A stretch of 64,000 nucleotides of DNA from a virus (taxonomy: Duplodnaviria; Caudoviricetes): positions 192,001 through 256,000 of IMG/VR virus record IMGVR_UViG_3300028048_000038; one strand, written 5' to 3'. The notes below the pieces were generated by a model that ran no database searches, was not told where the DNA came from, and worked only from the letters and a program-made list of their open reading frames with translations. Positions 1 to 36,524 of the stretch are shown here, in pieces (position 1 is the stretch's first letter; the number at the start of each line of letters is the position of its first letter). The translations under genes were made by a program, and so were the position numbers.

Positions 1-2161
1 CAGTAGCGTAGATTTCATATCCACCACTAGGCTTCGATATAACTTCAAACTTAGTGTTGTCAAACACGCTAGTTTGTGTTGTCTTGACTTCTATTGCACA
101 GCAAGTTAACGCTGACTCTGGAATAGAATTTTTTAGTTCCGCTATCTTTTTCCTTTCCCCGTTGGTAAACGGTATTGGGTTATCTACTGTCACGCCACCT
201 TCCGTGTGTAATAGCTCAAAACTATATGAGGAACTATTACATGACTTCGGTATAAGCTTTGTCAGCGTTATTGTCACTTGGGTAGTGGAATCATCCAAAA
301 CAGTTGGTACAGCAGTCGCTTCATAGTCCTCGTTCATATTTGTTGTAGCAGTGATTTCATAAATCTCACGGTTCTTCATGCCCATTGGGTATTGAATATT
401 TTTTGGCGAGTTAAAAGCAATATCAACTTTATTTACATTATAATAATATGAACCAGCCCTAATGCTTAAATCTGTCACTAAGTTTCCACTTGGAGTAGTA
501 GAGCCTTTATCTATTTGCGTAAGCACAATTAAAGGTGCGTCAGGAGCAGGCATTTGATATACAGTGAACTCATTCGTGCAGTTTGACAAACTAGCGTTTG
601 AATATCTGACTGTGACTTTGAAGCTCTTCTCTACGGATTCTGTGTTCGGGTCAGCCGTAAAGAACACTTCCTTATGACCCCAATTATCACTAACGTGGTC
701 TAGCCTTGGGTTGGAACACGGATGCTCAATACCGTCTGTGCTGAATGAGTAGGTGATGTTACCGTTGCAAGGACTGGTAACCAAAGAGGTATTGTATTCG
801 AAGTTATAGGAAGATGAAGTACCACCGCTTGCAGGTATTTGTCTACTACTACTTGTGCTTGATGGTACGTAACAGCCTTTGGTCTTAACACTTTCGCAAT
901 TTGTACAGTCAAGAGGAGTACCTCCTTGTACTATTTCAAATTCCTTCTCGCACGGGTTAATTCCGCTAGAATCTGTTATGTATAGTATAAGAGTACACCG
1001 CCTAGAATCTGATGATTCATTTTCAGATAAAACAATATTCAATTTATCATCAGCTATACCGCTTACAAGCCAATCACATTCATCTTTTTTAACAACGCCA
1101 GTTAATCTAGCGCAGTCATTAAGATATTCTGATGTAACATCAATTAAAATTCTATCAGCACTGTAACTAGCACTATGTGATGTTGTGCTTGAAGTCCAAG
1201 CATTTGTACAATTGCATCCTTCTTGTTTTATTGTTACTTTTTTTGAAAACTCCCCACAAAATGTGCCACTCATCCTTTTTAGCATACTTGCAGTGTATTC
1301 AACACCTGGCACGACTGATTTATCGCTGTCAATGATATATCCGACTTGAGTAAACTGTGCCTCCCTGTCATCAGTTGAACTATTTGGGTCTATAAGACAG
1401 TGAACATACCATCTACCATCATTATATACATATCTAAAGTTATTTATGTCGCCTCTTCCTAGCCATGAAGGGCAATAGCCAGACAGCAAGTAAAAGCCTT
1501 TATCAGACAAAGCATCTCCGCTTTTATTAGAATATGTTCTTGCTATTGACTCACGAGAACCACCGTTATGGTCAATAAGATAACCACTTAAATAATACCC
1601 ACCGCTGCTCCATGAAGTGTCTTGTAATTTTTCGCAATTTATAGTAGGACTCTGTATGTATGGTTTAGCTATTGTCTGGCAAACAGTACCATCCCTTAAT
1701 GTTATGTATATATTGACAACGCAGCTTCTTTCAGGCGATGACCTTAAAGGTAATACATCGGCATAAACTGCATATTTCTTATTGGCTTCAAGCTCTTCAA
1801 CTCTAACTAGATTTTCACCATCACTGTAGAAAATGCTACTTGCTGAACTACTACAATATGCACTAATTGAGCCACAGCCTTGTGTATTTGCAGAAAAAAG
1901 CATTACATTCCTTTCCATTACCCTAGGTGTGGGCAGATATGTGTTGGTGTATACAATTCTACCCTCTATATTGCTGCAATCACAATGTATTTCACAAGGC
2001 GGAACTTCGTAGTCAACAGATGAGCTGCAACCTTCATCGTCAACGTATGTTATCGTGTACACAATAAAATCATCTCCAACTGTATTACTAGGTATGTTGG
2101 CCACCCCGTTGTCATCTATGGAAGCACCACCAGTTTTTGGGTTTATATCCCATGTACTCAT
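1..2161 (-). CDS. Cys-rich modular Ig/BACON-like tail-fibre-associated protein (gene C); 3'-truncated by the window edge and absent from the ORF track
   Basis: ATG at 2161 gives MSTWDINPKTGGASIDDNGVANIP...YTITYVDDEGCSSSVDYEVPPC. The frame is open wherever spot-checked (start, ~530-960, window edge ...DNTKFEVISKPSGGYEIYAT). It has modules such as IPASGG...ADPNT...CTNEFTVYQ, and its N-terminus is paralogous to 2378..3265. Confidence 0.8.
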   Translation of the reverse strand, partial: MSTWDINPKTGGASIDDNGVANIPSNTVGDDFIVYTITYVDDEGCSSSVDYEVPPCEIHCDCSNIEGRIVYTNTYLPTPRVMERNVMLFSANTQGCGSISAYCSSSASSIFYSDGENLVRVEELEANKKYAVYADVLPLRSSPERSCVVNIYITLRDGTVCQTIAKPYIQSPTINCEKLQDTSWSSGGYYLSGYLIDHNGGSRESIARTYSNKSGDALSDKGFYLLSGYCPSWLGRGDINNFRYVYNDGRWYVHCLIDPNSSTDDREAQFTQVGYIIDSDKSVVPGVEYTASMLKRMSGTFCGEFSKKVTIKQEGCNCTNAWTSSTTSHSASYSADRILIDVTSEYLNDCARLTGVVKKDECDWLVSGIADDKLNIVLSENESSDSRRCTLILYITDSSGINPCEKEFEIVQGGTPLDCTNCESVKTKGCYVPSSTSSSRQIPASGGTSSSYNFEYNTSLVTSPCNGNITYSFSTDGIEHPCSNPRLDHVSDNWGHKEVFFTADPNTESVEKSFKVTVRYSNASLSNCTNEFTVYQMPAPDAPLIVLTQIDKGSTTPSGNLVTDLSIRAGSYYYNVNKVDIAFNSPKNIQYPMGMKNREIYEITATTNMNEDYEATAVPTVLDDSTTQVTITLTKLIPKSCNSSSYSFELLHTEGGVTVDNPIPFTNGERKKIAELKNSIPESALTCCAIEVKTTQTSVFDNTKFEVISKPSGGYEIYAT

Positions 2162-2195
2162 AGTTATACTATTACTTTTTTTATAATTCATTATT

Positions 2196-2285
2196 TTAAC
2201 TTGCCATGAAAGTCACACTACCTCCATGACAATCCACTTGTCTGCTAGGTGTGATGTTATATGATACACCCTCACAAGGTCTTGG
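2196..2285 (-). repeat. 90-bp near-perfect copy of the 3' end of gene 3291..4388 (matches 3291..3380)
   Basis: Direct comparison shows 2 mismatches; the copy includes the TAA stop. Confidence 0.95.
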
Positions 2286-2287
2286 TT

Positions 2288-2326
2288 CTAGCTGTACTAG
2301 GACTAATACTCCATGCCATATTCTAT
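2288..2326 (-). repeat. 39-bp exact copy of the start region of gene 2378..3265 (matches 3234..3272)
   Basis: ctagctgtactaggactaatactccatgccatattctat occurs at both sites. Confidence 0.95.
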
Positions 2327-2377
2327 ATTATTTATCTGTTTAAATTAGTTTAATAATTATAAAGAAAAAATATATTT

Positions 2378-3265
2378 TTAAAGTTCACACATTCCTCCAG
2401 TTACCCTCATAACAATATTATCAATTCTTATGCCATAGTTTATACTTGCGCACACTTTGCATGGTCCACAAATTTGAGGCCAAGGGTTGAACGCATAACA
2501 TTGACTATCTGGTATATCACATGATAAACAAGCACCATTCCATCTCATGTCATAGTTTACAATTTCATGCTTTAGTGTTGCTACCATATTAGGTATATCG
2601 AAGTCTATTGAATTTAAAATCTGTTCCTCAGTCCAACTTGAATCAACTTCAAATTTTGCTATTCCTGTTGTCTTTCCAGAAGTACTAGTTCCGCCTCCAG
2701 CGACAACACTAATATTAATATTTTTATTAGGAACTTTTAATGTTACGTCAACTGAGCCTTTTTCAATATTTGTAAATTGTACTGTATATGGTATTGAAAC
2801 TTGTTTTGTTGGTCCGCCGCCTCCCGCTTTTTGTCTTACAGTGGCAACAAACTCACATCCGTCATCTGAAACGAACACGGCTCTTCCTTCCCTATATCCT
2901 CCACTGTTATCTTCAGCTTTACAGACATAGACATAACGTTCACTGTCCCCACCAGTTGATAAATAGGTTATCCAAGAATCAGAATCACTTCTTGAGAATG
3001 TAAGAGGTGACTTAGACTTAGTTGACATTGCAACACCAGCGCCCACATTATCCTTAGCACTTTCTTCTGCGTTGAGGTTAATAAATTGATATACTGTACA
3101 GTCTGTTGGTGAACAACCAGGGATGGTGTATGTCGTACTTGAACTACACCCATCCCCGTCTGTATAAGTTATTCTATAGGTTTTGCTGTTGCCTACAGCC
3201 TCTGGAAACCAAGCATTACCACTATCATCTATACTAGCTGTACTAGGACTAATACTCCATGCCAT
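2378..3265 (-). CDS. Cys-rich Ig/BACON-like putative receptor-binding/fibre accessory protein (gene B)
   Basis: 295 aa; BACON-like segment SWIT...EDNSGGYREGRAVF...TVRQ; N-terminus paralogous to gene C. Confidence 0.6.
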   Translation of the reverse strand: MAWSISPSTASIDDSGNAWFPEAVGNSKTYRITYTDGDGCSSSTTYTIPGCSPTDCTVYQFINLNAEESAKDNVGAGVAMSTKSKSPLTFSRSDSDSWITYLSTGGDSERYVYVCKAEDNSGGYREGRAVFVSDDGCEFVATVRQKAGGGGPTKQVSIPYTVQFTNIEKGSVDVTLKVPNKNINISVVAGGGTSTSGKTTGIAKFEVDSSWTEEQILNSIDFDIPNMVATLKHEIVNYDMRWNGACLSCDIPDSQCYAFNPWPQICGPCKVCASINYGIRIDNIVMRVTGGMCEL

Positions 3266-3290
3266 ATTCTATGTTATTATTTATTATTAT

Positions 3291-4388
3291 TTAACTTGCC
3301 GTGAAAGTCACACTACCTCCATGACAATCCACTTGTCTGCTAGGTGTGATGTTATATGATACACCCTCACAAGGTCCTGGACCTGGGTCACAGCTTGGGT
3401 CACTTGAACAATCTGGGCATGATTGATAAAAAGTGTATGAATTACTAAGTCCGTGATAACTTACCGATAATGTTCTGCTATTGCTGCATCCTCCAATACA
3501 ACAATCACATGACCCAAATGAACTGCTGTCACCTCCAGCGCTTTCGCTTCCACTTCTATCATCGTATGGCGATGAATGATAAACAGTTCCACAATCATCC
3601 CTCCATTCATATCTGTCATAGAAATAACCAGTGGATGATATGCTAAAGTTTCCGCCATCACAACCAAAACTTGATGATGTAGTTGGGTATACGCTTACAC
3701 CTGTATAATGTCTTCCTTCGTAAGAATTCCACCCACCTCCAAGCGCTGCTTGGCATATTGTCGTTGTGCTACTATGACTTGCTCCTCTAAACACAATAGA
3801 CCCAGTGACTGTTGTACACCTTCTAGGTGCTGTTCTTGTCTCAGGCTGTCTTCCGATTGAGTAGTAAGGATAACTAACTGAGCCATATGTACCTGGGTTC
3901 CAAGACACCTCATTATCAGCAGTGTCTGACACGTTATAGCTTGTAGTAGAGACCATGCAAGAATTGTTCATTGATTTAGTGTATCTTGTGTAAACATGAG
4001 AATAGCCAAGTTGCTTGCTTCCACCACATTGCGAAATATCTCCACTAGCAGATGACACTGAGAAACTGTAGAATCTTGTGTACATCATAGAAAGGTCTTT
4101 TTGGTCAACCAACTGGTTTGGTGCATATGCAACGCCAGTTGCCAAAGAAACACTGTTAACTATTATCCCATCTCTATCGCCATTTGGAGTCGCTCCTTGT
4201 ACCCACGTTTGTATAACGCTTCCTCCAATCAACTCACTATATGTAGGGCAGTAATCGTCTCTATATGTGCTGCTAATGTACATTGGAGAACCGTTGGCGC
4301 TGTTTTGTACTTCACTGCCAATGAAGTTCTTCAAGTATGCTATTGTAACAACTCTAAGACATTCGGTTTGAAAATCTATACATGCCAT
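3291..4388 (-). CDS. Cys/Ser/Gly-rich tail-fibre-associated protein (gene A)
   Basis: 365 aa; directly downstream of the S74 fibre gene; repeated CxGG beta modules. Confidence 0.6.
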   Translation of the reverse strand: MACIDFQTECLRVVTIAYLKNFIGSEVQNSANGSPMYISSTYRDDYCPTYSELIGGSVIQTWVQGATPNGDRDGIIVNSVSLATGVAYAPNQLVDQKDLSMMYTRFYSFSVSSASGDISQCGGSKQLGYSHVYTRYTKSMNNSCMVSTTSYNVSDTADNEVSWNPGTYGSVSYPYYSIGRQPETRTAPRRCTTVTGSIVFRGASHSSTTTICQAALGGGWNSYEGRHYTGVSVYPTTSSSFGCDGGNFSISSTGYFYDRYEWRDDCGTVYHSSPYDDRSGSESAGGDSSSFGSCDCCIGGCSNSRTLSVSYHGLSNSYTFYQSCPDCSSDPSCDPGPGPCEGVSYNITPSRQVDCHGGSVTFTAS

Positions 4389-4418: not shown

Positions 4419-6296
4419 TTATTTTTTATCTTTTAAATTTTTTATTTCTTTCTCAAGTTCAACGATTCTACCGTTAAGCATTGCGCAGAAATCCTCAAGA
4501 TAAGCTGTCTTCAATATAAGTAATGATGTATAGTCAACAGCAAGAGTTCCATCATCCTTTGTATGTACTAATTCATTTAGACCAACCTCTTGAACTTCTT
4601 GTGCTATAACGCCATATACTTTTCTCTTAGTATCATCATCTTTGAAATTAAATGACTTTGTGAAGATATTCTTTACCTTGTTTATATCCTCACGTTCAAC
4701 AAAATTAATATTCTCCTTTAAGTTTCTATCTGAAGAATATATTGCTTGACTTGCAGTTATTGTACCAGTCACACACACATTACCATTTAAATTGGTTGCT
4801 CCAGTTATGTTTGTTGTAGTGCCGCTAATGTTAGTGGTCTTCTCTTTTATAGTAAATGTACCATTATCACCACACTGTTCAAAGTTCACAGCATTACTAT
4901 TAACACCGAATCCATTACAGAATTCGAATGCCACACTACCACCTGTAGTACTACACTGCTTAAGTGAGAAAATATCTGATGTTACCTCAAATTTTCCACA
5001 CGTACTAATGGTTGTATTAGCCTCGGTAATGTTGAGGTTTGTACCACTAATAGTAGTTGCTGGAGACTTCAGTATAGTGCTTGTTGATTCTGTAATAGCA
5101 AGAGTATTTCCACTATAATCAGCAGTTGTTGCACTTTCGTTAAGTGTACCAATAACTGTAGTAGCAGTAGTTGCACTTGTATATGCACTTGTTGATACTG
5201 TATTAGCAGTATTAGCCTTAATGTTTAAAGTTTGTGTTTGACCACCGTCTGAACAGTCAATACCTATGTTTGTCTTGTTAGTGCCGACAAATGCTGCAAT
5301 ATCTCCAGCAGTAGCACAAAGGTCATCATTTGCAGTTACAATTATACTAGATTCAGAAGATGCTGCCGTAATATCTTCAACCGCTGTGATACCTACTGCA
5401 CCTTCTGAATGTATTGCTGTGTTACCAGTGGTCATAAATGTAGTATTACCAGTTGTATTGAATACTGTGTTACCACTTTCATTCGTTGTAGTAGTGCCAT
5501 TGTTATTGTAAGTGGTAGTGCCACTAGTGTTTACTGTCTTATCATTCTTATTGGTTTCACTTACAACACCATCCTTAACCTCAGTAGTAGTTCCACTTAC
5601 ATGAAGATTTTCAGTTCCTACAACTGTAGTTCTTGTCGTAGCACTCTCATTTAATGTTGTTACTGTCTCGTTCTCGTTTGTAACCTTCACTGTAAACGTC
5701 TTTCCAGTACGTGTACCAGTACCATCACCATCAGTAATGGTAGTATTACCACTAAGGTCGGTCTTATCAGTCACAGTTAATGAACTGAATGAAGGATTAC
5801 CACCTCTCATTGCGTAACGAGACATATCGATAAAGAAACCAGCACCATCATTAACACCATAATCATCTGTTGGGTTAACGTCCTTGTTATATTTATCTTT
5901 CTTGCCATTAACCTTATCATGCTTTGTGGTGTTGCTTGCTGCAACTTGGTTAAGTTTGATGATAATCTCTGATGTGTTGTTCAAAAGGTCATCATTTGAG
6001 ATTCCATAAGAACCCATTGCATCTGCTATTGGTGAATCACCGCTAGTTGACTGTGGACCACCGTCACCTCTCACATAGCCAACGTAAGGCATGACCTCTT
6101 TTCTCTCCATCCACTCAATTGTTTGAGCATCTGATGAGAATCTCACCACACCATTCTCAGTGTTCTTAATTGAAAGGAATTCTTTGTCTTTGTAGTTGTT
6201 AACTGCAATTTCACCAACCTCAAGTGTAGCTGGTGTTGGCTGCCTATCCGCAATACTGCTATGGATATGTTGCAGCTTTCTTCTGTCTTTTGCCAT
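4419..6296 (-). CDS. Tail fibre with C-terminal intramolecular chaperone (peptidase S74)
   Basis: N-terminal PTPATLEVGEIAVN fibre motif; Thr-rich beta repeats; YSSDRNLKENI...YGVIAQEV...AVDY followed by a coiled coil. Confidence 0.85.
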   Translation of the reverse strand: MAKDRRKLQHIHSSIADRQPTPATLEVGEIAVNNYKDKEFLSIKNTENGVVRFSSDAQTIEWMERKEVMPYVGYVRGDGGPQSTSGDSPIADAMGSYGISNDDLLNNTSEIIIKLNQVAASNTTKHDKVNGKKDKYNKDVNPTDDYGVNDGAGFFIDMSRYAMRGGNPSFSSLTVTDKTDLSGNTTITDGDGTGTRTGKTFTVKVTNENETVTTLNESATTRTTVVGTENLHVSGTTTEVKDGVVSETNKNDKTVNTSGTTTYNNNGTTTTNESGNTVFNTTGNTTFMTTGNTAIHSEGAVGITAVEDITAASSESSIIVTANDDLCATAGDIAAFVGTNKTNIGIDCSDGGQTQTLNIKANTANTVSTSAYTSATTATTVIGTLNESATTADYSGNTLAITESTSTILKSPATTISGTNLNITEANTTISTCGKFEVTSDIFSLKQCSTTGGSVAFEFCNGFGVNSNAVNFEQCGDNGTFTIKEKTTNISGTTTNITGATNLNGNVCVTGTITASQAIYSSDRNLKENINFVEREDINKVKNIFTKSFNFKDDDTKRKVYGVIAQEVQEVGLNELVHTKDDGTLAVDYTSLLILKTAYLEDFCAMLNGRIVELEKEIKNLKDKK

Positions 6297-6840: not shown

Positions 6841-8160
6841 TTATTTGACTAAATATTTTTTTCCATCCTTGATATACACCCCCTTGGGCAATCCTTCAAG
6901 CGTATTGCCGACCTTATGACCTTGGAGGTTATATACAGCACCATCATTACTAGCTTCTATCTTGGTATTTACAATTGCCGTTGTTCTTTTCGGCTGCGGT
7001 ATGTACTCCTTTGGTGGCACAAATGCCAACAAATGTAGCCAATAATTATTTTCTATTAATGCACCATAGTCTCCAATTTGTCTCCATAGGCTAGGTTGAA
7101 ATATTACATAATAAGGATGATAATAATACATACCATTGTCATCACGTCCATCAATAATGAATATATGTCGTCCACCTCCTGCCACAACTGGAATACCCCT
7201 TTCAAGGTATGAATCAAGAAAATTCCAATATTCTTCATCTGGAAGTTCTAAATATTCTCTAGTATATGAAGTTCCACTTTCATCCCAATGCTCTATACAT
7301 TCACCAATTATGAATTTTACTTCCTCATACTTATAGATGTTTCTCATCACATCATCCCATTTAACTATGTATTGCATTGCATTGGTTGCTGTCCCATAAT
7401 GGGCATAAGTTACTTTAAATGCACAGCCTACATGATATAAAAGTTCCGCAACAGCATTCGCCTCTTCATCAGTGTACCCATAACCATAATAGTCTTTTAT
7501 TAAATCCCATTTAAACTCTGTGTATGGAACTGAAACATCAATACTGCTACCACTTGGTTCACTTGGTTTCCAAACCCCTATAGTGGTATCAAATGCATCT
7601 ACACTTTTTGGGTATTTGAAATAGTTCATTACTTGTGAAATTGCGGTAGGTCCACAGCCACTCCATGCACGTCTTTCAAGTTCGGTCTCTCCTTCAAAAA
7701 TCTCTGGACAATACCTATTAAATGGTTCTCTCTGCCCCCAACGATTCGCTGCTGGCATAATTGGTTCAATTACAGTGGTATTCCTTGGAACATACTCTGA
7801 TGGAATCTCCTTATATGACCCACCCCTAGTAGTACCACGACCATCACAATCTAATATTGGTATCAATTCCTTCAACTCACTTGGGATGTTATTCTCATCA
7901 ATAGTCTGCTCCTTTGAATACGCAAGCACCTCTGGGAGTCTCTCATCACCACTCATGATGACACAGCCCTTTCCATCCTCCGCATTGAAGACGTAATAGG
8001 GCTTCATCACTTCCTCACCTCTTGTAACTGCACGTGGTGCTTTCAGTTTCTTGTCACTTAGGAACTTCTGAGCCTTTTGAAAAGCCTCACTCTCTGATAC
8101 CTTTTGCGCATTAATTGTTAATGATATAAATGCGCATAACAAAAACATTATTTTCCTCAT
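6841..8160 (-). CDS. C10 (streptopain/interpain-like) cysteine protease with signal peptide, I69-like propeptide and T9SS C-terminal domain
   Basis: Likely start MRKIMFLLCAFISLTINA at 8160; WGQREPFN; catalytic-Cys region SGCGPTAISQVMNY; HIFIIDG; CTD VYNLQG...LPKGVYIKDGKKYLVK. Confidence 0.85.
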   Translation of the reverse strand: MRKIMFLLCAFISLTINAQKVSESEAFQKAQKFLSDKKLKAPRAVTRGEEVMKPYYVFNAEDGKGCVIMSGDERLPEVLAYSKEQTIDENNIPSELKELIPILDCDGRGTTRGGSYKEIPSEYVPRNTTVIEPIMPAANRWGQREPFNRYCPEIFEGETELERRAWSGCGPTAISQVMNYFKYPKSVDAFDTTIGVWKPSEPSGSSIDVSVPYTEFKWDLIKDYYGYGYTDEEANAVAELLYHVGCAFKVTYAHYGTATNAMQYIVKWDDVMRNIYKYEEVKFIIGECIEHWDESGTSYTREYLELPDEEYWNFLDSYLERGIPVVAGGGRHIFIIDGRDDNGMYYYHPYYVIFQPSLWRQIGDYGALIENNYWLHLLAFVPPKEYIPQPKRTTAIVNTKIEASNDGAVYNLQGHKVGNTLEGLPKGVYIKDGKKYLVK

Positions 8161-8176
8161 ATGATTTAATTTTTTT

Positions 8177-8208
8177 GTAAAGATACGATTTTTTTCTGAA
8201 ATAACAAA
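8177..8208 (-). promoter_or_regulatory. Bacteroidetes-type promoter for the C10 protease
   Basis: TTTG-N19-TATCTTTA. Confidence 0.65.
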
Positions 8209-8225
8209 AAAATAGTATGTAAAAA

Positions 8226-8257
8226 CTTGTTTTTTTAACATTTTTTGTATATCTTTG
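8226..8257 (+). promoter_or_regulatory. Bacteroidetes-type promoter for the metallophosphoesterase
   Basis: CTTG-N20-TATCTTTG. Confidence 0.7.
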
Positions 8258-9733: not shown

Positions 9734-12028
9734 TTATCCATTATAATACAAATATATAGTTCCACCGTCTGATAAAACATTAATTCCATTTATGATTAAT
9801 ATCTTATTACCTGCGCTACTCTGAAACTCAGCTAAAGTAATAGATGCATTTTCATAAGTGCTGTCCAATACTTTTACCTTAGATACTAGAGTGCTTCCAA
9901 CTGTAAAATCTGGGACTGTGAAACTGTTCGACATACCATCACAGAATATTTCTACTGTACCATTAATTTCATTAGGCGTACCATTTACCAAGGTAAATGT
10001 TACAGAAATGTTTGATGGGGCTGGGTCATTACCTTTCTTCTGTTTAACCATTATTGATGCTTCACCATCCCCACAATTTTCAATGGTATAAGATATTGGC
10101 AGTTCGTAAGTTCTTTCCTCACTAGTATTGTTCTTTTCGATATCAGCATAGATAGCACCATCTTCAAATGATACATTTGAAACAAAGCTACCTCCACCCT
10201 TATTAACTGTAAATGTTACAGTACCGCCACTACACGTTGGCTCTTTATCATAGCTAATCCTACAATCTGATGATATACCAACATCTTTAATACAACTATT
10301 GAATATATAGCTACCGATAAACTCATGTTCACCACCATTTTTACTCATAGCAGTTTGTGCGCTATACGCCTCGAAGAAGGCGTTATCACAGTCACATTCT
10401 ATTGTTGGGTCTTTTGGATATTCATCTTTATCTTGATTTGAGCCGATTTGTTTAACAATTATGGTATCATAGCATTCTTCATTATTAAGTTTGAATGTAA
10501 CACCACCTTCACGAGTTGAACCACTATTCAAACTAGCAGAGTAAGATATGTTTCTTCCATTAACTGAAACAGTTAACCACTCTGGTTTATCAGTCAATGT
10601 AATATCACAAATAGCTGTGTCAGTTACTGTATCAGTACCACCACTACCAATTTCTATATTAGATTTGGTTACACATGTTTTACAAGAATCTGAGCATGGT
10701 TTCTTATACTGCTGATATTGTATAGTAAATACATTTGTACAGTTGCTGCATATATTACTTGGTAATATTGCCTTTGCGTCATCTTCAAAATTACATGGTG
10801 ATTTTTTAAAGGTATATTCTACACTAACATTATCAAGAGTACCTTCATCACAATCATCGCCACTATAAGGTAGTATATCAATATAGTCTTCCCATATATT
10901 TCCACTTGTCAATCCACTAGTACAATTTTCATATACTGTTATTGCGGAATATTCCCAAGATACTTTCATTGTACCTCCGTAATATGGAAACACATAAGGA
11001 TTTAGAGGATTTATTTCTTTCCACGTTCCACTGACTGTATCTTTATAATAACGTTTTACAGATGAAGTACTTACACAATAGCCAGTATCTGGATGCTCAA
11101 CTTCACATTGGCATTCACCACTATAGTTTAAATCCTTCTTCTGTGTAATTTTCAAATTAATTGTATTACCTCCACCACACAAAGTATGACCACTCCATAC
11201 ATATGGAATAGTTCTAACTCTTTCTCTACAGCACTCGCTACCATCACATTTTGGCACTTTCACAGTACCTTGGTGTCTTCCATAAGTCTCTTTTTTCTCA
11301 CAGTCAGTTAATGTAATTTTTTTATAATCAAAGTAAAAATTAACAGTGCCTCCGCTATAATCTACTTTTTGCGGGTTATAGTAAATATCGTTTATTTCGT
11401 AGCATTCACTAATTCCACTTTCATCGCAGCAATTCTCTGGCTTTTGAACATAACAATATAAGCCTGATATTGGTATTTCTTTAGTGGTTTGTTTTCTACA
11501 ATCAGTATAACCACTAATATTAATTGCTGGAACACTTATTGTTCTATTTTCGGCATCACAATCTACATTTGGACTTATGGGGACTTGTTGAGAACCACTT
11601 TCCCTTACTCTTGAAATTACGTGGCATTCATCTTGTCTAGTCTCCCAATATTGGTAATATACTGTTGTAGCACTATTATCTGATGTTACGTAATATGGAT
11701 TTACATATGCATCAATTAATTCATAAAATATTGCGCAGTTTCCGCAATCTTCACAGTCATCCCTTCTCTTTTGGGTAATATTATATGTTATGGTGCAACC
11801 ATTCCATCTTATTGTACCACTTGATTGTTTATCGTCAGTGCATGATGTATTGACACCTATATATATTGATTCACAATAATTTTGGACATCATCACCAATA
11901 CAACCATCTGTATTTCTAATGACACCAACCCAACAAACGGTAGCATATGCACTATCAGCATCAACTGTAATGTTTATTGTCTGACTTTTCTGTAATGTTC
12001 CGTTTTTATTTAACCAATACTCTACCAT
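9734..12028 (-). CDS. Cys-rich multi-BACON/Ig-like virion protein
   Basis: 764 aa; KPEWLTVSV...LNSGSTREGGVTF...VKQ BACON-like module; repeated ~100-aa modules ending in IxQ followed by Cys linkers. Confidence 0.7.
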   Translation of the reverse strand: MVEYWLNKNGTLQKSQTINITVDADSAYATVCWVGVIRNTDGCIGDDVQNYCESIYIGVNTSCTDDKQSSGTIRWNGCTITYNITQKRRDDCEDCGNCAIFYELIDAYVNPYYVTSDNSATTVYYQYWETRQDECHVISRVRESGSQQVPISPNVDCDAENRTISVPAINISGYTDCRKQTTKEIPISGLYCYVQKPENCCDESGISECYEINDIYYNPQKVDYSGGTVNFYFDYKKITLTDCEKKETYGRHQGTVKVPKCDGSECCRERVRTIPYVWSGHTLCGGGNTINLKITQKKDLNYSGECQCEVEHPDTGYCVSTSSVKRYYKDTVSGTWKEINPLNPYVFPYYGGTMKVSWEYSAITVYENCTSGLTSGNIWEDYIDILPYSGDDCDEGTLDNVSVEYTFKKSPCNFEDDAKAILPSNICSNCTNVFTIQYQQYKKPCSDSCKTCVTKSNIEIGSGGTDTVTDTAICDITLTDKPEWLTVSVNGRNISYSASLNSGSTREGGVTFKLNNEECYDTIIVKQIGSNQDKDEYPKDPTIECDCDNAFFEAYSAQTAMSKNGGEHEFIGSYIFNSCIKDVGISSDCRISYDKEPTCSGGTVTFTVNKGGGSFVSNVSFEDGAIYADIEKNNTSEERTYELPISYTIENCGDGEASIMVKQKKGNDPAPSNISVTFTLVNGTPNEINGTVEIFCDGMSNSFTVPDFTVGSTLVSKVKVLDSTYENASITLAEFQSSAGNKILIINGINVLSDGGTIYLYYNG

Positions 12029-15000: not shown

Positions 15001-15529
15001 CAAAAGGATTGACGATATATTTTAAATCCTCAGAACCCAATATTGGTCTAGATTCGATTATGCTCCCATCAACTGTCTTTGTTTCGGTATAATAGACATT
15101 ATTGCTTGTCCCATACAGTTCTCCTGGAAATCTGTCTATAATATCAGTTATTGATGAACGTAGCATTTCAGACAATGAACCATAATAGCAGAAATCACAG
15201 AAATCATAATAATCTTGCTTTAATACTATCTTGGTATCATTATCATTGTCATCAGTGGATACAAGACCTTCTAGTGATGATACTGTCCAAATATCACCAC
15301 TAGTACTGTTTTTATCCCATTCTTTAGTATTATATTGGTTTGAGATACCACTATCATTTCTTACCGTAATAATAAAGTTATTAGAACGATAAATTGGGGT
15401 TTGTGATGAAGGAAAATTACCAACACCGCCTATTGTCGTAATATCTCTCTCATATATTGTACCATCATTTATAGATTGATGAAATGACTTTAGTACATAG
15501 TTACTATGTGTTTTTATAAACTTTGGCAT
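12035..15529 (-). CDS. Baseplate/tail structural protein
   Basis: 1164 aa in the structural operon; RYIWRHKGTLDGIDMVLGMFG resembles the P2 gpI-like/wedge KGT motif. Confidence 0.6.
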   Translation of the reverse strand: MPKFIKTHSNYVLKSFHQSINDGTIYERDITTIGGVGNFPSSQTPIYRSNNFIITVRNDSGISNQYNTKEWDKNSTSGDIWTVSSLEGLVSTDDNDNDTKIVLKQDYYDFCDFCYYGSLSEMLRSSITDIIDRFPGELYGTSNNVYYTETKTVDGSIIESRPILGSEDLKYIVNPFGINMHSRTKPDDVTNTLKYFANGGYNAYTIDNKQVTAWTSTYYYSENVGKNEYIRYTATTDSTEVTSESATTYYPCKGDKVADITLKTASDTYEISAWLGDDDVVYYLYEDKLLYYDIFVKTDNEEYHIPLELSGETIVCKIENEYYKVIHDYINESGETETADTTSLYQLLNSYVEFNDEKYFCERPYCFHITPDKPYLYSFYNECDNFQRLLLNPKTTPKYKAIFSVIKENENGYYREFEEFVFPTSEGGYNIDATSYGFNTYTSRLSDIGSFYDEYFTDNLYRSMTHEAIKNFDWTYTREYVEGDEEEYVIGGEKMQKALRIFAREFDETLAYINNIRSTNRVTYDERSNLPDYFLTDVLENEGWNVRLVIPYDISGDITKPSSNKCDTLPRKFIQCSGTVVPYSKDKLQYPNGYYISCCSSGTVPCGYNNGSYKLSVASADEYTRVDSCGYNSIVRNRIKAFSDEREYSYNEVNNEFLRRLKLNSRYIWRHKGTLDGIDMVLGMFGFKNKKFVDGLSETCKQSDYDYEITEYVASSNTITDRWDDAHQMNEIDWVNSTKTITYDYRSVSNYNRDGIDVNYLSYQGLPVKYVQNNDRTRTLYPNFEKYEQYDGNPYFQMNGGWQDKAFKYNGNYYSFQFDVDNNIVYSTNGELFKETVRNIRRFDTLQDMLSVPSYEITNGQIVYVSYIQNNIAVLAGMIYNIKKDSFCKNSINGYIELIKSNGVVRAGDDYFFDEIIRVFDRNGNVSTVNINEIPNGQPINCYIVNNTIQCYDDYKNCSNLFEIIDPNLANYTNYFTIADFSQSNRLYNSTHASGGWRRLSLGETRCKMINTIVNDNNGNNPHNGMMVYDNGREYFKYYEQLFKYSIENDMFDERCYDNFENALSTKISGYGFTVSDYYPAPTTEEKPYIQKVYHIEDKNTITNQIFNTKVIRITFKLHNNLFANSGAKKGQGDCEMKYIDDIVMNYLTQMIPSTAILQIRYTN

Positions 15530-16671
15530 GATTCTGCTAATATTTCATTTAGTTTAGTTTCAACATTCTCATCATAATTGATATAATATAGTTTAATGTT
15601 GTGTTCTTCGCAAAGTTGTTTTTTCTTATTATCTAGTGACTGAATATGCTTTAAAGATTCATCTTTATGATTCCAGCCGACAAAATGTTGTTCTCCTTGA
15701 CATTCAATGGCTATGTTATATTTTGGTAAATAAAAATCTAAATGCTGTCTATCAAGCCAAACAAAATATTTTTTATTTACTTTTTCTATAAATTGAATGC
15801 TCTTATTTTTTAATAAATTACTAGTATATTTTTCTAATTTACTATCTCTACAAAAAGGACAACCACAACCACCTAAATGGTGTGCTGGAGTTTGCCAAAA
15901 CTCACCATGTTTAGGGCAAATTATAGGAACTTCAATTGTACTACTAATATAATTTATTGTTTTTTTATCGTAAATATATTTGTCGCCATGAACATTTATA
16001 GATTTCTCTATAAATTTATCTACGTCTAGTCTTCTAATGTTTATAAGCTCTTCATAATGACAAAACTTGCACCCATTACCTTTTAAATGGTCTTCTGGCC
16101 TTTGCCAAAATTCACCATGTTTAGAACATATAATACATACTCTGCCTTTTTCATCTCTATTATTCATGTCAGTTTTAGTGTAGATATATTTGTCCCCATG
16201 AATTTTTTTAGCTAGAAAAATAAATTTATTATTGTCATATTTTTGCTTTAAATGCGCAGAATTTACTCCACATTTTTTACATCCACCGCCCATTAGGTGA
16301 TACGCTGGTCTTTGCCAAAACTCACCGTGAATTGGACAGATTATACATACTCTACCCTTTTCATCACTATTGTCTAAATCACTTCTAGAATAATCATATT
16401 TTTCACCATGAATAGTCCTAGCCTTAGAAATAAATTCATCAGTTTTCATAGAAAATTTTTCTGACATCATTTCATATTTACATTTACGACATTTTTGTCC
16501 ATTCAAATGATTACTAGGTATCTGCCAAAACTCACCATGTTTAGGACAGATTATGCACACTCTACCCTTTTCATCACGGTGTTCCAAATCTGTATTTGTG
16601 TAAATGTATTCATCGCCATGAACCTTTCTTGCTCGTTCAATAAATTCTTCTGTCGTTAACTTTCTACTCAT
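15514..16671 (-). CDS. Putative homing endonuclease: four 70-aa CPxHG repeats plus C-terminal PD-(D/E)XK/Vsr-like nuclease
   Basis: CIICPKHGEFWQ repeats with a 210-nt period; HLDFYLPKYNIAIECQGEQH. Confidence 0.8.
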   Translation of the reverse strand: MSRKLTTEEFIERARKVHGDEYIYTNTDLEHRDEKGRVCIICPKHGEFWQIPSNHLNGQKCRKCKYEMMSEKFSMKTDEFISKARTIHGEKYDYSRSDLDNSDEKGRVCIICPIHGEFWQRPAYHLMGGGCKKCGVNSAHLKQKYDNNKFIFLAKKIHGDKYIYTKTDMNNRDEKGRVCIICSKHGEFWQRPEDHLKGNGCKFCHYEELINIRRLDVDKFIEKSINVHGDKYIYDKKTINYISSTIEVPIICPKHGEFWQTPAHHLGGCGCPFCRDSKLEKYTSNLLKNKSIQFIEKVNKKYFVWLDRQHLDFYLPKYNIAIECQGEQHFVGWNHKDESLKHIQSLDNKKKQLCEEHNIKLYYINYDENVETKLNEILAESCQSL

Positions 16672-33228: not shown

Positions 33229-35217
33229 TTAAACACTTTTACAACGTATTCTTATATCATCACCATCTGGGTTCTTAATCTCCCACATTGAATTGAAGTC
33301 ACTATAGAGCACCTTTTGGGTTGCGTCCAAATCCAATTGTTTCTGTCCGCTAAACAGTGACTCTTGAGCCGTATCACAACTGTTACCTTCTACTATCGTT
33401 GGAAGAGGACAAACATCTGTGCTGTATCCATTGCCACTGAGCGTATAGATTCTAAGGTTAATAATGCTTATGACACCATCTTGCATGTTGATTTCCTTTT
33501 CCAAATCACCAACAAATATATCCTCGCCCATATCGTGCTTGTTAACACTGAAATATTCAGAGATATTTGTTATGACATTTGATATTACATTGGCTGCATT
33601 ATAGTTCTTATCGATGAACAAATCAACAGCAACGCCAATATTATAGATTCTTCCACTCCTAATCTCAATATAATCATTTATCTGCTTATAGTGAGACATG
33701 TACTCAATTGTGTTATTTACTAGAGTTTGAGGTAGCAATGATGTAAGTTTACCATCGCCATCCAAACCAAGCATGTCAATTTCTATCTTATTGTTAGTTT
33801 CGATAACGCTGCTTCTGAATGGAGCACCATATTTAGGCGGCATCTGCATTAACTTAATCTTATAATCCTTTACAGTTACGGCACGATTCTGAGAAGAAGT
33901 ATTGTACTTCATAAGCGCCTTGATTTCCTCAGTTGATGGCTCATTCTTACCAGCCAATGCTGTTGAGATGTTAGTAACCTTCATGGAATTGATAACATCA
34001 CCTCGTATACTACCGTTAGTTCCTTCAGTATTACCCCAATCTATATTTGCTATTGTAAGTTTATTGATAGAACCAGGCCCTAAATTAGTGGATACACCAC
34101 CCCCTACTCTATATAGGACGAACATAGTCCACCCTTCTTTTGGAAGAATACCTAACATATCGTTGTTTATTATCTTTGAAGCAGCATACTCACCATATTT
34201 GGTAGTGCCAGTTGGAACGCTGTCATAAACGTTTCCAGCACCAAATATTATCTTCATATACCCATTATCAGTAAATTCTGTAATGAATTTTTGAGTTAGT
34301 GGTTTCCATTTACCACAATAATATCTAGTTGTTCTAGTTGATGTGCCACCACTGCCTTGTGTGACATCTGTATATACATCTGGATTGTATATATCCTTAA
34401 CAACATTGTTATCAACCTTATTGAATTCACTGCCAAATCTCCATTGGTCTGCCAACGAATCACATTCAAAGAAACGGTATGTCATAACAGCTTCCTTGGT
34501 TATTCTATATTCTTCAGAATCAATATAATATTCATATATCTCAGGATTCTCATTAAAATCAGAACTCTCCTTAAATATAATTGATTCGATGTTCATCACA
34601 TTAGACTCTGGCAACACAAATTCCATAAATGGCTGTAAATCACTTGAATATATGACTTTCTTATATACTTTGGTATTACCATTGATTACAATGGTAGATT
34701 TTGTGACGGTATATCCAGTTATGTTACCATTATTATCTCTAGATGGAACAATCTTTCTGTTCGAATAGCCATCACTATTGAACTGTTGTTTGAAATCTAT
34801 ATTCTCAGTAAGCTCAAAGTTATAGGCGCCAGCAGAAACAATACTAGTTCTCTGTAATATAGGGGCATATCTCCAATCTGGCAATGATATATTATCAGAA
34901 CTAACTGGCAATTCACAACTAATTTCAACTTCACAAGAAGATGCTTTGCGTCCAGGGATTTTCAAACCATTGGTTCTTGCCATATTCAATACAGTACTTC
35001 TAAGATTCGCACTATCAATATTTGTCTCTTGATACTGTCTGTCGATATGATAAGAAAGTGAATCGCCTACGTCAGAAACAAGGTCAATCATCCAAGAACC
35101 AATGCTTGAATCATTGAAGTCATCAAATAACTCAGGATAGTATTTATTGCTAAACTTTATCAGCTCTTCTTTAATTGATTCAAAATCACGAGCTAAATAA
35201 TTAATCTTACGATTCAT
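33229..35217 (-). CDS. Baseplate wedge subunit (T4 gp6/baseplate J-like)
   Basis: NYLARDFESIK, YRVGGG, QNRAVTVKDY. Confidence 0.85.
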   Translation of the reverse strand: MNRKINYLARDFESIKEELIKFSNKYYPELFDDFNDSSIGSWMIDLVSDVGDSLSYHIDRQYQETNIDSANLRSTVLNMARTNGLKIPGRKASSCEVEISCELPVSSDNISLPDWRYAPILQRTSIVSAGAYNFELTENIDFKQQFNSDGYSNRKIVPSRDNNGNITGYTVTKSTIVINGNTKVYKKVIYSSDLQPFMEFVLPESNVMNIESIIFKESSDFNENPEIYEYYIDSEEYRITKEAVMTYRFFECDSLADQWRFGSEFNKVDNNVVKDIYNPDVYTDVTQGSGGTSTRTTRYYCGKWKPLTQKFITEFTDNGYMKIIFGAGNVYDSVPTGTTKYGEYAASKIINNDMLGILPKEGWTMFVLYRVGGGVSTNLGPGSINKLTIANIDWGNTEGTNGSIRGDVINSMKVTNISTALAGKNEPSTEEIKALMKYNTSSQNRAVTVKDYKIKLMQMPPKYGAPFRSSVIETNNKIEIDMLGLDGDGKLTSLLPQTLVNNTIEYMSHYKQINDYIEIRSGRIYNIGVAVDLFIDKNYNAANVISNVITNISEYFSVNKHDMGEDIFVGDLEKEINMQDGVISIINLRIYTLSGNGYSTDVCPLPTIVEGNSCDTAQESLFSGQKQLDLDATQKVLYSDFNSMWEIKNPDGDDIRIRCKSV

Positions 35218-35220
35218 ATA

Positions 35221-36135
35221 TTAATGTCTTTTAATTTCATTTATTAATAAATCTTTATTTGTATATACGCCATCATATTCAAATGTTGAATAATATAGTA
35301 AGAAGATGTTATTTTTCTCACATAGGATTTTTTTCTTTTTATCTCTTTCAATTCTTTTTTCAAGTCCTCTCTCCCCACCAAAAAAATCGACAACCTCAAA
35401 ATGTTGTATACCTTGGCACTCTATTGCTGCGTTATATTCTGGCAGATAAAAATCCAAGTGTTGTTGTCCTAGCCAATCAAATGTTTTTTTGTGAATATAA
35501 TTAATGCTAAGTTTATCCAAAAATACTCTAATTTCTTTTTCCAAACTACTCTCTGAACAAATTGGGCAACCACATCCTCTCAAATGGTGATGTGGTGTTT
35601 GTAAAAACTCTCCGTGTTTAGGACAAATAATACAAACATTTGTATCTCTATTAATGTATTTTACTTTTGAATAATCATACTTATTGTCATGGATTTTTAT
35701 AGCCTCTGCAATGAAATTTTCTTTTGTTTTTCTTTGCTTATTGTGGCTTGAAATCTGTCCGCATTTTTTACATCCATGACCATTTAGTAAATGATATGGC
35801 TTAATCTCAAATTTTCCATGAATAGGACAAATCAATTTAATCTTTGTATGCATACCAATATAATTCACTAAAGAGTAATCATATTGTGGAAAAATTGTTT
35901 TGGCTTTTTCAATAAAATGTTCTTGAGAAATAAGTTTCTTTTTACTCCTAGTCTCTATTCCACATTTTCCGCACATATGTCCACTTAGAAAATCGTTTGG
36001 TCTTATCCAAAACTCTCCGTGTTTTGGGCATATAATACATACTTTAGTTTTATTGTCTTTATATTCAACTTTTGAATAATCGTATTCTTTGTCTTGAACT
36101 AATTTGGCTTTAACAATGAATTCCTCTTTAGTCAT
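35221..36135 (-). CDS. Putative homing endonuclease, paralog of 15514..16671 (three CPxHG repeats)
   Basis: CPKHGEF repeats; HLDFYLPEYNAAIECQGIQH; sits between the gp25-like and gp6-like genes. Confidence 0.8.
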   Translation of the reverse strand: MTKEEFIVKAKLVQDKEYDYSKVEYKDNKTKVCIICPKHGEFWIRPNDFLSGHMCGKCGIETRSKKKLISQEHFIEKAKTIFPQYDYSLVNYIGMHTKIKLICPIHGKFEIKPYHLLNGHGCKKCGQISSHNKQRKTKENFIAEAIKIHDNKYDYSKVKYINRDTNVCIICPKHGEFLQTPHHHLRGCGCPICSESSLEKEIRVFLDKLSINYIHKKTFDWLGQQHLDFYLPEYNAAIECQGIQHFEVVDFFGGERGLEKRIERDKKKKILCEKNNIFLLYYSTFEYDGVYTNKDLLINEIKRH

Positions 36136-36524
36136 TATACTCGTACTACTATACTATCATTAGTTGTTTTATTTCCTTCTGAAACACTGTAATCCAATCT
36201 TACATATATCTCAGCTTCATCCTCTTCATTCTTAACCACTTGTATATTGTTAAGAGTTATGTCCCTAGACCATCTTCTTACAGATTCACTAACCTCATTT
36301 TTAACAGCTTCCCAAGTGATATTCTCATTTGGGTCGAATATGAACTTAATGAGGTCTGTTCCAAACTCTGGATTTCTGATTCTTTGTCCCTTTGGTGTAA
36401 AGACAATATGCATCAGCTCACTTCTAGCCTTGTCTTTAGTGCTACCATTGGCGTTGACAAAAAAATGTTGAAACCCATCACTGCGAAATGGATATGTTAT
36501 GCCAAAGTATTGTTTCTTGTTCAT
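36135..36524 (-). CDS. Baseplate wedge gp25-like (sheath initiator)
   Basis: GITYPF...TPKGQRIRNPEFGTDL..FIFDP. Confidence 0.85.
   Translation of the reverse strand: MNKKQYFGITYPFRSDGFQHFFVNANGSTKDKARSELMHIVFTPKGQRIRNPEFGTDLIKFIFDPNENITWEAVKNEVSESVRRWSRDITLNNIQVVKNEEDEAEIYVRLDYSVSEGNKTTNDSIVVRV

Follow-up and report, generated by a model that had tools for sequence, protein, structure and literature searches.

Genes A, B and C lie on the minus strand inside the tail region of a window of 64,000 nucleotides (nt), which covers positions 192,001–256,000 of a virus record of 409,537 nt. The C-terminal tail of protein A and the N-terminal heads of proteins B and C resemble complementary parts of an immunoglobulin (Ig)-like domain of the Big_2 type. 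Most likely, judged from sequence comparison, this conserved domain is naturally split and serves as a docking joint for accessory fibre proteins. The smaller part is referred to as the plug and the larger part as the socket. A second plug is found in the upstream gene D. From the patterns described below we infer binding, pairing specificity, a disulfide, a location on the virion and an adhesin function of the cargo.

In the proposed arrangement the cut through the domain falls in the loop that connects strands B and C. The scaffold proteins A and D, encoded in the tail-fibre/baseplate region, would display a plug of ~22–26 residues at the C-terminus or in a loop flanked by Gly/Pro. The accessory proteins B and C are translated separately and would start with the remaining ~52 residues, the socket. 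After translation the plug would complete the β-sandwich of the socket, and the cargo would thereby become attached to the virion. Plugs in loops or in tandem would act as branch points and yield a branched fibre. Plugs and sockets appear to fall into matched classes and the cargos probably occupy separate sites, B on the tail of A and C on the loop of D. Behind the constant socket the cargo bodies would be exchanged by recombination.

Two putative parts of a Big_2-type domain

The first-pass annotation of this window had proposed that the A tail and the B and C heads complete one Ig-like domain in trans. The open reading frames (ORFs) were re-read on the minus strand and contain the tail and both heads as it described them. 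The heads of B and C share 51% identity over 53 residues (tblastn E 2.5e-10) and the bodies behind them are unrelated (best blastp E 3.5), also in agreement with the annotation. The similarity of the heads exceeds chance, since dozens of related phages encode members of this conserved head family.

A profile of nine heads yielded 7,328 matches in 1.84 billion proteins, with giant bacterial repeat proteins at the top. The repeats that match most of the head are Big_2 domains, i.e. intact repeats of bacterial adhesins. An independent 80-position profile built from 75 repeats served as the reference for the intact domain. The predicted fold of one intact repeat (predicted local distance difference test, pLDDT, 92.6) is similar to the Big_2 structures 7R3T and 7QUZ (Foldseek E 5e-5, template modelling score 0.82). 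The socket alignment matches the reference profile at positions ~33–78 of 80 only (HHalign 97%, E 1e-10). Likewise, alignment of the socket model is confined to the later portion of Big_2/Ig-like domains, with middling Z-scores: residues 43–95 of 95 in LigB 2MOG (Z 4.0, r.m.s. deviation 2.8, 47 aligned residues) and residues 61–128 in 7QUZ (Z 4.7, r.m.s. deviation 2.2, 52 aligned residues). The socket profile also matches residues 62–111 of the 7QUZ sequence (E 0.054) and the socket carries the Y-T-D-x-x-G-C motif of Bacteroidota repeats. Single sockets have no match to Big_2 (PF02368) in Pfam at E ≤ 0.1 and match other Ig-like families weakly. Since profile and model cover the later part of the domain only, both identify the socket as a Big_2-type domain without strands A, A' and B.

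The missing strands are attributed to the plug. Several plugs alone align to positions 5–29 of the intact Big_2 profile. When a plug is placed before a socket, the match to the intact profile improves by more than 2 bits in 54% of 504 combinations, compared with 6.5% for shuffled plugs. The proposed domain type and cut position hold for the socket, and the plug half is more weakly assigned.

The socket begins at Met1 in 35 of 36 distinct sockets of the fetched loci. In a search of longer proteins (103–2000 residues), all 40 new phage-type proteins among the matches listed have an N-terminal socket, one of them with an apparently mis-called start; nine bacterial repeat proteins are also among these matches. 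The annotation had suggested looking for fused versions, and profile searches of related phages gave no in-frame fusion of plug and socket among the matches listed. In ordinary Big_2 domains all strands reside in one polypeptide, which is not found for the plug and socket genes. No socket protein carries a credible plug and no plug protein carries a socket; the single match of this kind, in the related locus L031, is the F-G hairpin of the socket itself. In two other loci (L063 12284–13453 and L039 8935–12126) proteins have the socket motif near the N-terminus but lack its first half; these may represent divergent sockets or a different cut.

The cargo behind the socket is variable, as had been expected: at least 13 unrelated groups occur in related phages, and 13 groups of cargo bodies were counted in the fetched loci. 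The C-terminal domain of B (window 2378–2830) recurs behind different sockets and middle domains in L004 (2994–3878), L024 (2357–2953), P0054 and P0055. Therefore, cargo bodies are shuffled at the level of modules.

Plugs are found at the C-terminus, in tandem (P0006, P0007, P0036) or internally between Gly/Pro linkers. The internal plug of D was overlooked in the first pass. At the corresponding site a plug-like insertion is present in the D homologues of L005, L012, L031 and L053 and absent from those of L043 and L017/L040/L062. As this comparison indicates, the D plug is an optional loop insertion in a BACON-type domain. A loop-borne plug probably does not fold by itself, given how short it is. 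The genome-wide plug search is insensitive and missed plugs that are visible by alignment. By its sequence, the G-G-T-I-Y-like strand at the C-terminus of D could be a further plug; it has no plug score and similar ends close other domains. Most D homologues end like a divergent plug, with the order Cys, strand, Cys, G-G, strand, which mostly escapes the plug profile (L012 3–2069, L031 16–2259, L043 129–2276, L053 392–2761, L060 5236–6897 and L062 16506–18863). These tails likely represent a further plug class, as far as the sequence pattern indicates.

For prediction of the complex, B(1–56) and A(336–365) were each supplied as an alignment. The score is 0.54 compared with 0.02 for the best control; at least 95% of the contacts agree in three runs and the partner has a pLDDT of 78. 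In the calibration, 58 of 80 solved complexes and 2 of 110 mismatched pairs attained the mark. The range of 0.60 or below contains only 7 of the 80 solved complexes together with both mismatches. For this reason the expected association of A tail and B head passes weakly, and the model gives weak support for plug and socket physically forming one domain.

Co-occurrence and co-variation in related loci

The coupling of the two halves was scored in 35 non-redundant A loci with downstream sequence. The next gene carries a socket in all 18 loci in which A has a plug, as against 2 of 17 loci in which it has none (table 18/0/2/15, Fisher p 4e-8). For the 23 loci that were collected regardless of the plug, the table is 7/0/2/14 (p 1.5e-4). 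The trait changes ~7 times on a poorly resolved tree. Coupling across homologous loci, which the annotation had predicted, is thus found in every plug-bearing locus. The numbers of plugs and sockets are equal in the window (2/2) and in L005 (3/3), and L024 has two sockets and at least two plugs. Two loci differ in gene A itself: L025 (819–4591) contains two complete A homologues in tandem, both without a detected plug, and in L019/L050 (6974–10413), two records of the same contig, the A homologue is present as two overlapping ORFs, owing to a frameshift or an assembly error.

The A-B spacer has the length and the out-of-frame position given by the first-pass annotation, which had argued against readthrough. 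This argument extends to the related loci. The spacers vary from 22 to 429 nt in frames 0, 1 and 2, no frame relation or shift site is conserved, and in 11 of the 18 loci A continues for 59–268 residues beyond the plug. Furthermore, each socket has a Met of its own, preceded by an A/T-rich leader, and second and third sockets have no upstream plug. Programmed frameshifts are known to append Ig domains to phage structural proteins, and in the window the stop codon of A is only 25 nt from the start of B. Nevertheless, these observations make it highly improbable that frameshifting, ribosome hopping or splicing between A and B restores the domain within a single chain.

Some loci have a cysteine where plug strand A' ends (Cys355 in A) and others lack it; the same applies to the socket cysteine that directly follows strand G (Cys51 in B). 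Strand A' pairs with the end of strand G in the Big_2 fold, so both cysteines should be close to each other. Their states are concordant in 16 of 16 cases (10/0/0/6, p 1.2e-4). A prediction that was fixed beforehand held for all six new loci, with three Cys-less plugs accompanied by Cys-less sockets and three Cys-containing plugs by Cys-containing sockets. The trait changes four times on the tree, and 3 of 3 independent contrasts are concordant (sign test p 0.25). When these cysteines are masked, similar plugs still go with similar sockets (Mantel r 0.49; partial r 0.45 with the A core taken into account, p 4e-4). Linkage could contribute to this co-variation, although A extends 59–268 residues past the plug in 11 of 18 loci. 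Judged from the sequence pattern, the two cysteines probably form an inter-chain disulfide in many pairs. The docking had been described as non-covalent: the lack of readthrough agrees with this, but the joint may not be purely non-covalent because the co-varying cysteines suggest a disulfide. A second candidate pair (the Cys before plug strand A and the Cys in the socket F-G turn) was rejected, as its register varies and L016 and L044 are discordant.

The socket could also be a self-sufficient truncated mini-domain that self-assembles or docks on another virion protein, with the plug as an unrelated motif that is associated by linkage. Both the confident prediction for the socket alone (pLDDT 89) and the weak homology of the plug would fit, and independent contrasts are few. 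On the other hand, plug and socket cover one domain complementarily and without overlap. None of the 18 plug-bearing A genes lacks a downstream socket, and the D plug matches the class of C from a distance of 7 kb. The cysteine states were predicted correctly in 6 of 6 loci, in five of which the plug is 59–268 residues away from the gene end. Such a mini-domain is therefore considered rather improbable.

Several points weigh against the split-domain joint. The pass in complex prediction may stem from the predictor's memory of the Big_2 fold. The homology of the plug to Big_2 is weak when the plug is taken alone, HHalign places it elsewhere (probability 3%), and A's own plug adds only 2.1 bits when joined to the socket. 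The pLDDT of the lone socket shows neither stability nor dependence on the plug. The plug profile was trained on these plugs, which makes the plug calls partly circular, and the cysteine states were called by eye and then checked by pattern. The contrasts on supported branches are too few for significance, both for the cysteines (n = 3, p 0.25) and for the coupling (two contrasts, p 0.5). Plug and socket genes are linked and co-inheritance can mimic co-evolution. In L031 and L032 a socket follows an A gene without a detected plug; the D homologue of L031 has plugs and that of L032 is outside the sequence in view. Finally, the counts in L053 are unequal, with up to four plug-like stretches and two sockets in view.

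Probable pairing of plugs and sockets

The genome has two live plugs (A tail and D loop) and two sockets (B and C). The B head is nearest to sockets that are paired with A-type tails. The C head is nearest to the socket of L023, and the D plug is nearest to the plug of L023, which is located in A there. By these sequence relationships B-A and C-D are probably the cognate pairs, because plug and socket classes match and extra sockets go with extra plugs (L005 and L024).

The first-pass annotation had instead regarded B and C as interchangeable on one adaptor, so that the A tail would take either of them and mixed fibre tips would result. The second plug in D and the co-variation of plug and socket classes do not agree with this proposal. 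The two heads are similar, both have a Cys after strand G, and in L001 and L023 the gene immediately after A is of the C type; yet it is the L023 pair to which both the D plug and the C head are nearest. A dead copy of the A plug is located just upstream of C, and close cousins of the true partner often cross-reacted in the calibration of the complex prediction, which would also suit a shared site. Extra sockets accompany extra plugs in L005, L024 and L053, as expected for separate sites. Interchangeable docking is thus unlikely, with a somewhat better standing than the mini-domain.

If the pairs are cognate, orthogonal split-Ig pairs might constitute an address code, in which a ~22-residue plug in any loop or tail marks a branch point, accepts its cognate socket only and is locked by a disulfide. 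This extension is tentative and slightly less likely than not.

The spacer between B and C contains a permuted duplicate (window 2195–2332), in which 45 nt of the B start are followed by 91 nt of the A plug. Both copies had been overlooked. The duplicate may be a dead fragment, a recombination scar, a substrate of a switch or an assembly artefact. A recombinational switch would use the direct repeats around B to delete B and to place C behind the A plug. The 91-nt and 45-nt repeats (98% identity) do flank B and a crossover between the 91-nt copies would bring A beside C. However, they are absent in the closest relative, L002, and could have arisen once as a scar or through faulty assembly. The expected junction was not found in viral contigs, a set that may not include the genome itself or near copies, and docking in trans needs no adjacency. 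Such a switch is improbable, more so than the mini-domain; it can coexist with split-domain docking.

Genomic setting and related systems

The features of the locus are listed in Table 1. Gene A and its N-terminal domain have no family match in Pfam, PHROG or Atlas, and gene A has no match among annotated phage records. Scanning of viral contigs with single proteins (A, B head and D) gave no matches. In every locus where the neighbour had an annotation, gene A comes after a fibre gene with an S74 domain. The head of B is common to variants of 295, 339 and 392 residues. The ORF of gene C has an alternative start at 2191 that adds ten residues and is absent from L002. Since this close relative has no upstream ATG, the ATG at 2161 is the likely start as read from the sequence.

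Table 1. Coordinates of plugs, sockets and neighbouring features in the window.
Feature	Position	Strand	Description
Gene A	3291..4388	-	365-residue Cys-rich scaffold/adaptor; N-terminal core conserved, C-terminal part variable; 52 homologues
Plug 1 (A residues 340–365)	3294..3371	-	Putative strands A, A' and B of Big_2-type domain; Cys355 is the co-varying Cys
A-B spacer	3266..3290		25 nt, A/T-rich, out of frame, stops in B frame; length not conserved
Gene B	2378..3265	-	295-residue putative cargo: socket, BACON-like domain (below Pfam cut-off) and variable tip
Socket of B (residues 1–51)	3113..3265	-	Putative strands C–G of Big_2-type domain; Cys51 after strand G
Copy of B start region	2288..2332	-	45 nt, 98% identity; opens a 15-codon ORF only
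Copy of A plug	2195..2285	-	91 nt, 98% identity; no start codon in frame; absent in L002
Gene C	1..2161	-	759-residue putative cargo with BACON domains (E 6e-7); extends 118 nt beyond left window end
Socket of C (residues 1–56)	1994..2161	-	Nearest is the L023 socket
Gene D	9734..12028	-	764-residue Cys-rich scaffold with BACON; homologues have plugs in loop and/or C-terminus
Plug 2 (D residues 589–610)	10199..10264	-	Loop insertion in BACON-type domain with Gly-Gly-Gly after it; C is the likely partner
Tail-fibre gene	4419..6296	-	C-terminal Peptidase_S74 chaperone domain; upstream of A; context

Baseplate wedge genes are located at 33229–36524. A gene for a protein with Peptidase_C10 and Inhibitor_I69 domains and an apparent signal peptide lies within the fibre cluster (6841–8241, minus strand) and is also found in L005 and L006; it is probably host-derived and of Bacteroidota type. 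The host may belong to the Bacteroidota, as judged from the BACON domains, the C10 peptidase and A/T-rich leaders that lack a Shine-Dalgarno motif. The metagenomes of the relatives are, by their sample names, presumably rumen datasets. Two genes inserted among the structural genes (15514–16671 and 35221–36135, minus strand) encode Cys-rich repeat proteins whose C-terminal domain is nuclease-like. The former has weak Pfam matches only, and we take both to resemble homing endonucleases.

The closest known system is the baseplate tripod of Lactococcus phage Tuc2009. There, a C-terminal hairpin of 25 residues of BppU completes a β-sheet of domain 2 of BppA (residues 230–286) (Legrand et al. 2016, PMC4742702). 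Together the two form an Ig-like fold reminiscent of titin, by which a carbohydrate-binding module is anchored to the tail (PMC4742702). Both systems comprise a scaffold piece of ~25 residues and an incomplete sandwich of ~55 residues on a separate accessory gene. The Tuc2009 acceptor is C-terminal and forms one pair, whereas the acceptor described here is N-terminal, Big_2-derived and present on many cargos. Furthermore, the plugs are mobile, in tandem or loop-inserted, occur in matched classes and take part in a co-varying Cys pair. The Tuc2009 complex is solved; in the window the putative virion role is read from gene context, i.e. the adjoining S74 fibre gene and the baseplate wedge genes. 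The Tuc2009 chains are absent from PDB sequence matches up to E 10 and from the fold matches listed, for which the queries were short. Literature searches on phage-fibre joints of the donor-strand or split-domain type gave nothing relevant, with thin coverage of subscription papers.

In chaperone-usher pili (Fim, Pap, Caf1) and Bacteroidia type V pili an incomplete Ig-like fold is completed by a peptide of the neighbouring subunit. One strand is donated, and each subunit is donor and acceptor and polymerises with the aid of chaperone/usher or protease. The likeness to pilus donor-strand complementation, as drawn by the first-pass annotation, applies to the completion in trans. Here, the first strands would be donated as a hairpin of two strands or more, closer to BppU/BppA, and no protein has both halves. 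No chaperone/usher or maturation protease was seen among the neighbours scanned, for which no dedicated test was made; the C10 peptidase has no shown link.

The Big_2 domains (PF02368) of intimin, Leptospira Lig, the adhesin repeats of the Bacteroidota type IX secretion system, lambda gpV and T5 pb6 belong to the same fold family and are intact within a single chain, in contrast to the split domain. Branched receptor-binding systems of phages (G7C, CBA120, KP32 and the K1-5 adaptor) and cohesin-dockerin pairs rely on a short N-terminal docking module. Like the socket, this conserved module carries variable cargo to a scaffold; unlike the socket, it is a whole domain (T4 gp10-like or dockerin). 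SpyTag/SpyCatcher is an engineered split CnaB2 domain in which the last strand is joined by an isopeptide bond. It shares the combination of a peptide, an incomplete Ig-like domain and a covalent lock, whereas the plug is natural, provides first strands and would be linked by a disulfide at most.

The principle of the joint is already known from one solved phage precedent, Tuc2009. New are the mobile loop-inserted plug, the co-varying Cys pair and the matched plug and socket classes. Given the small size of the halves, the joint lends itself to a direct peptide-binding assay, and matched pairs, possibly locked by a disulfide, would serve well as protein-assembly tags. Plug and socket are two short markers that would predict which unannotated proteins are attached to the virion, and where. 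Should the address code be true, the fibre would be a branched tree with multiple adhesins, its layout rewired by moving tiny plugs, and the pairs would form a natural SpyTag-like set. The split domain would explain how a family of ~400-kb phages attaches and exchanges many unrelated accessory proteins while the fibre itself remains unchanged.

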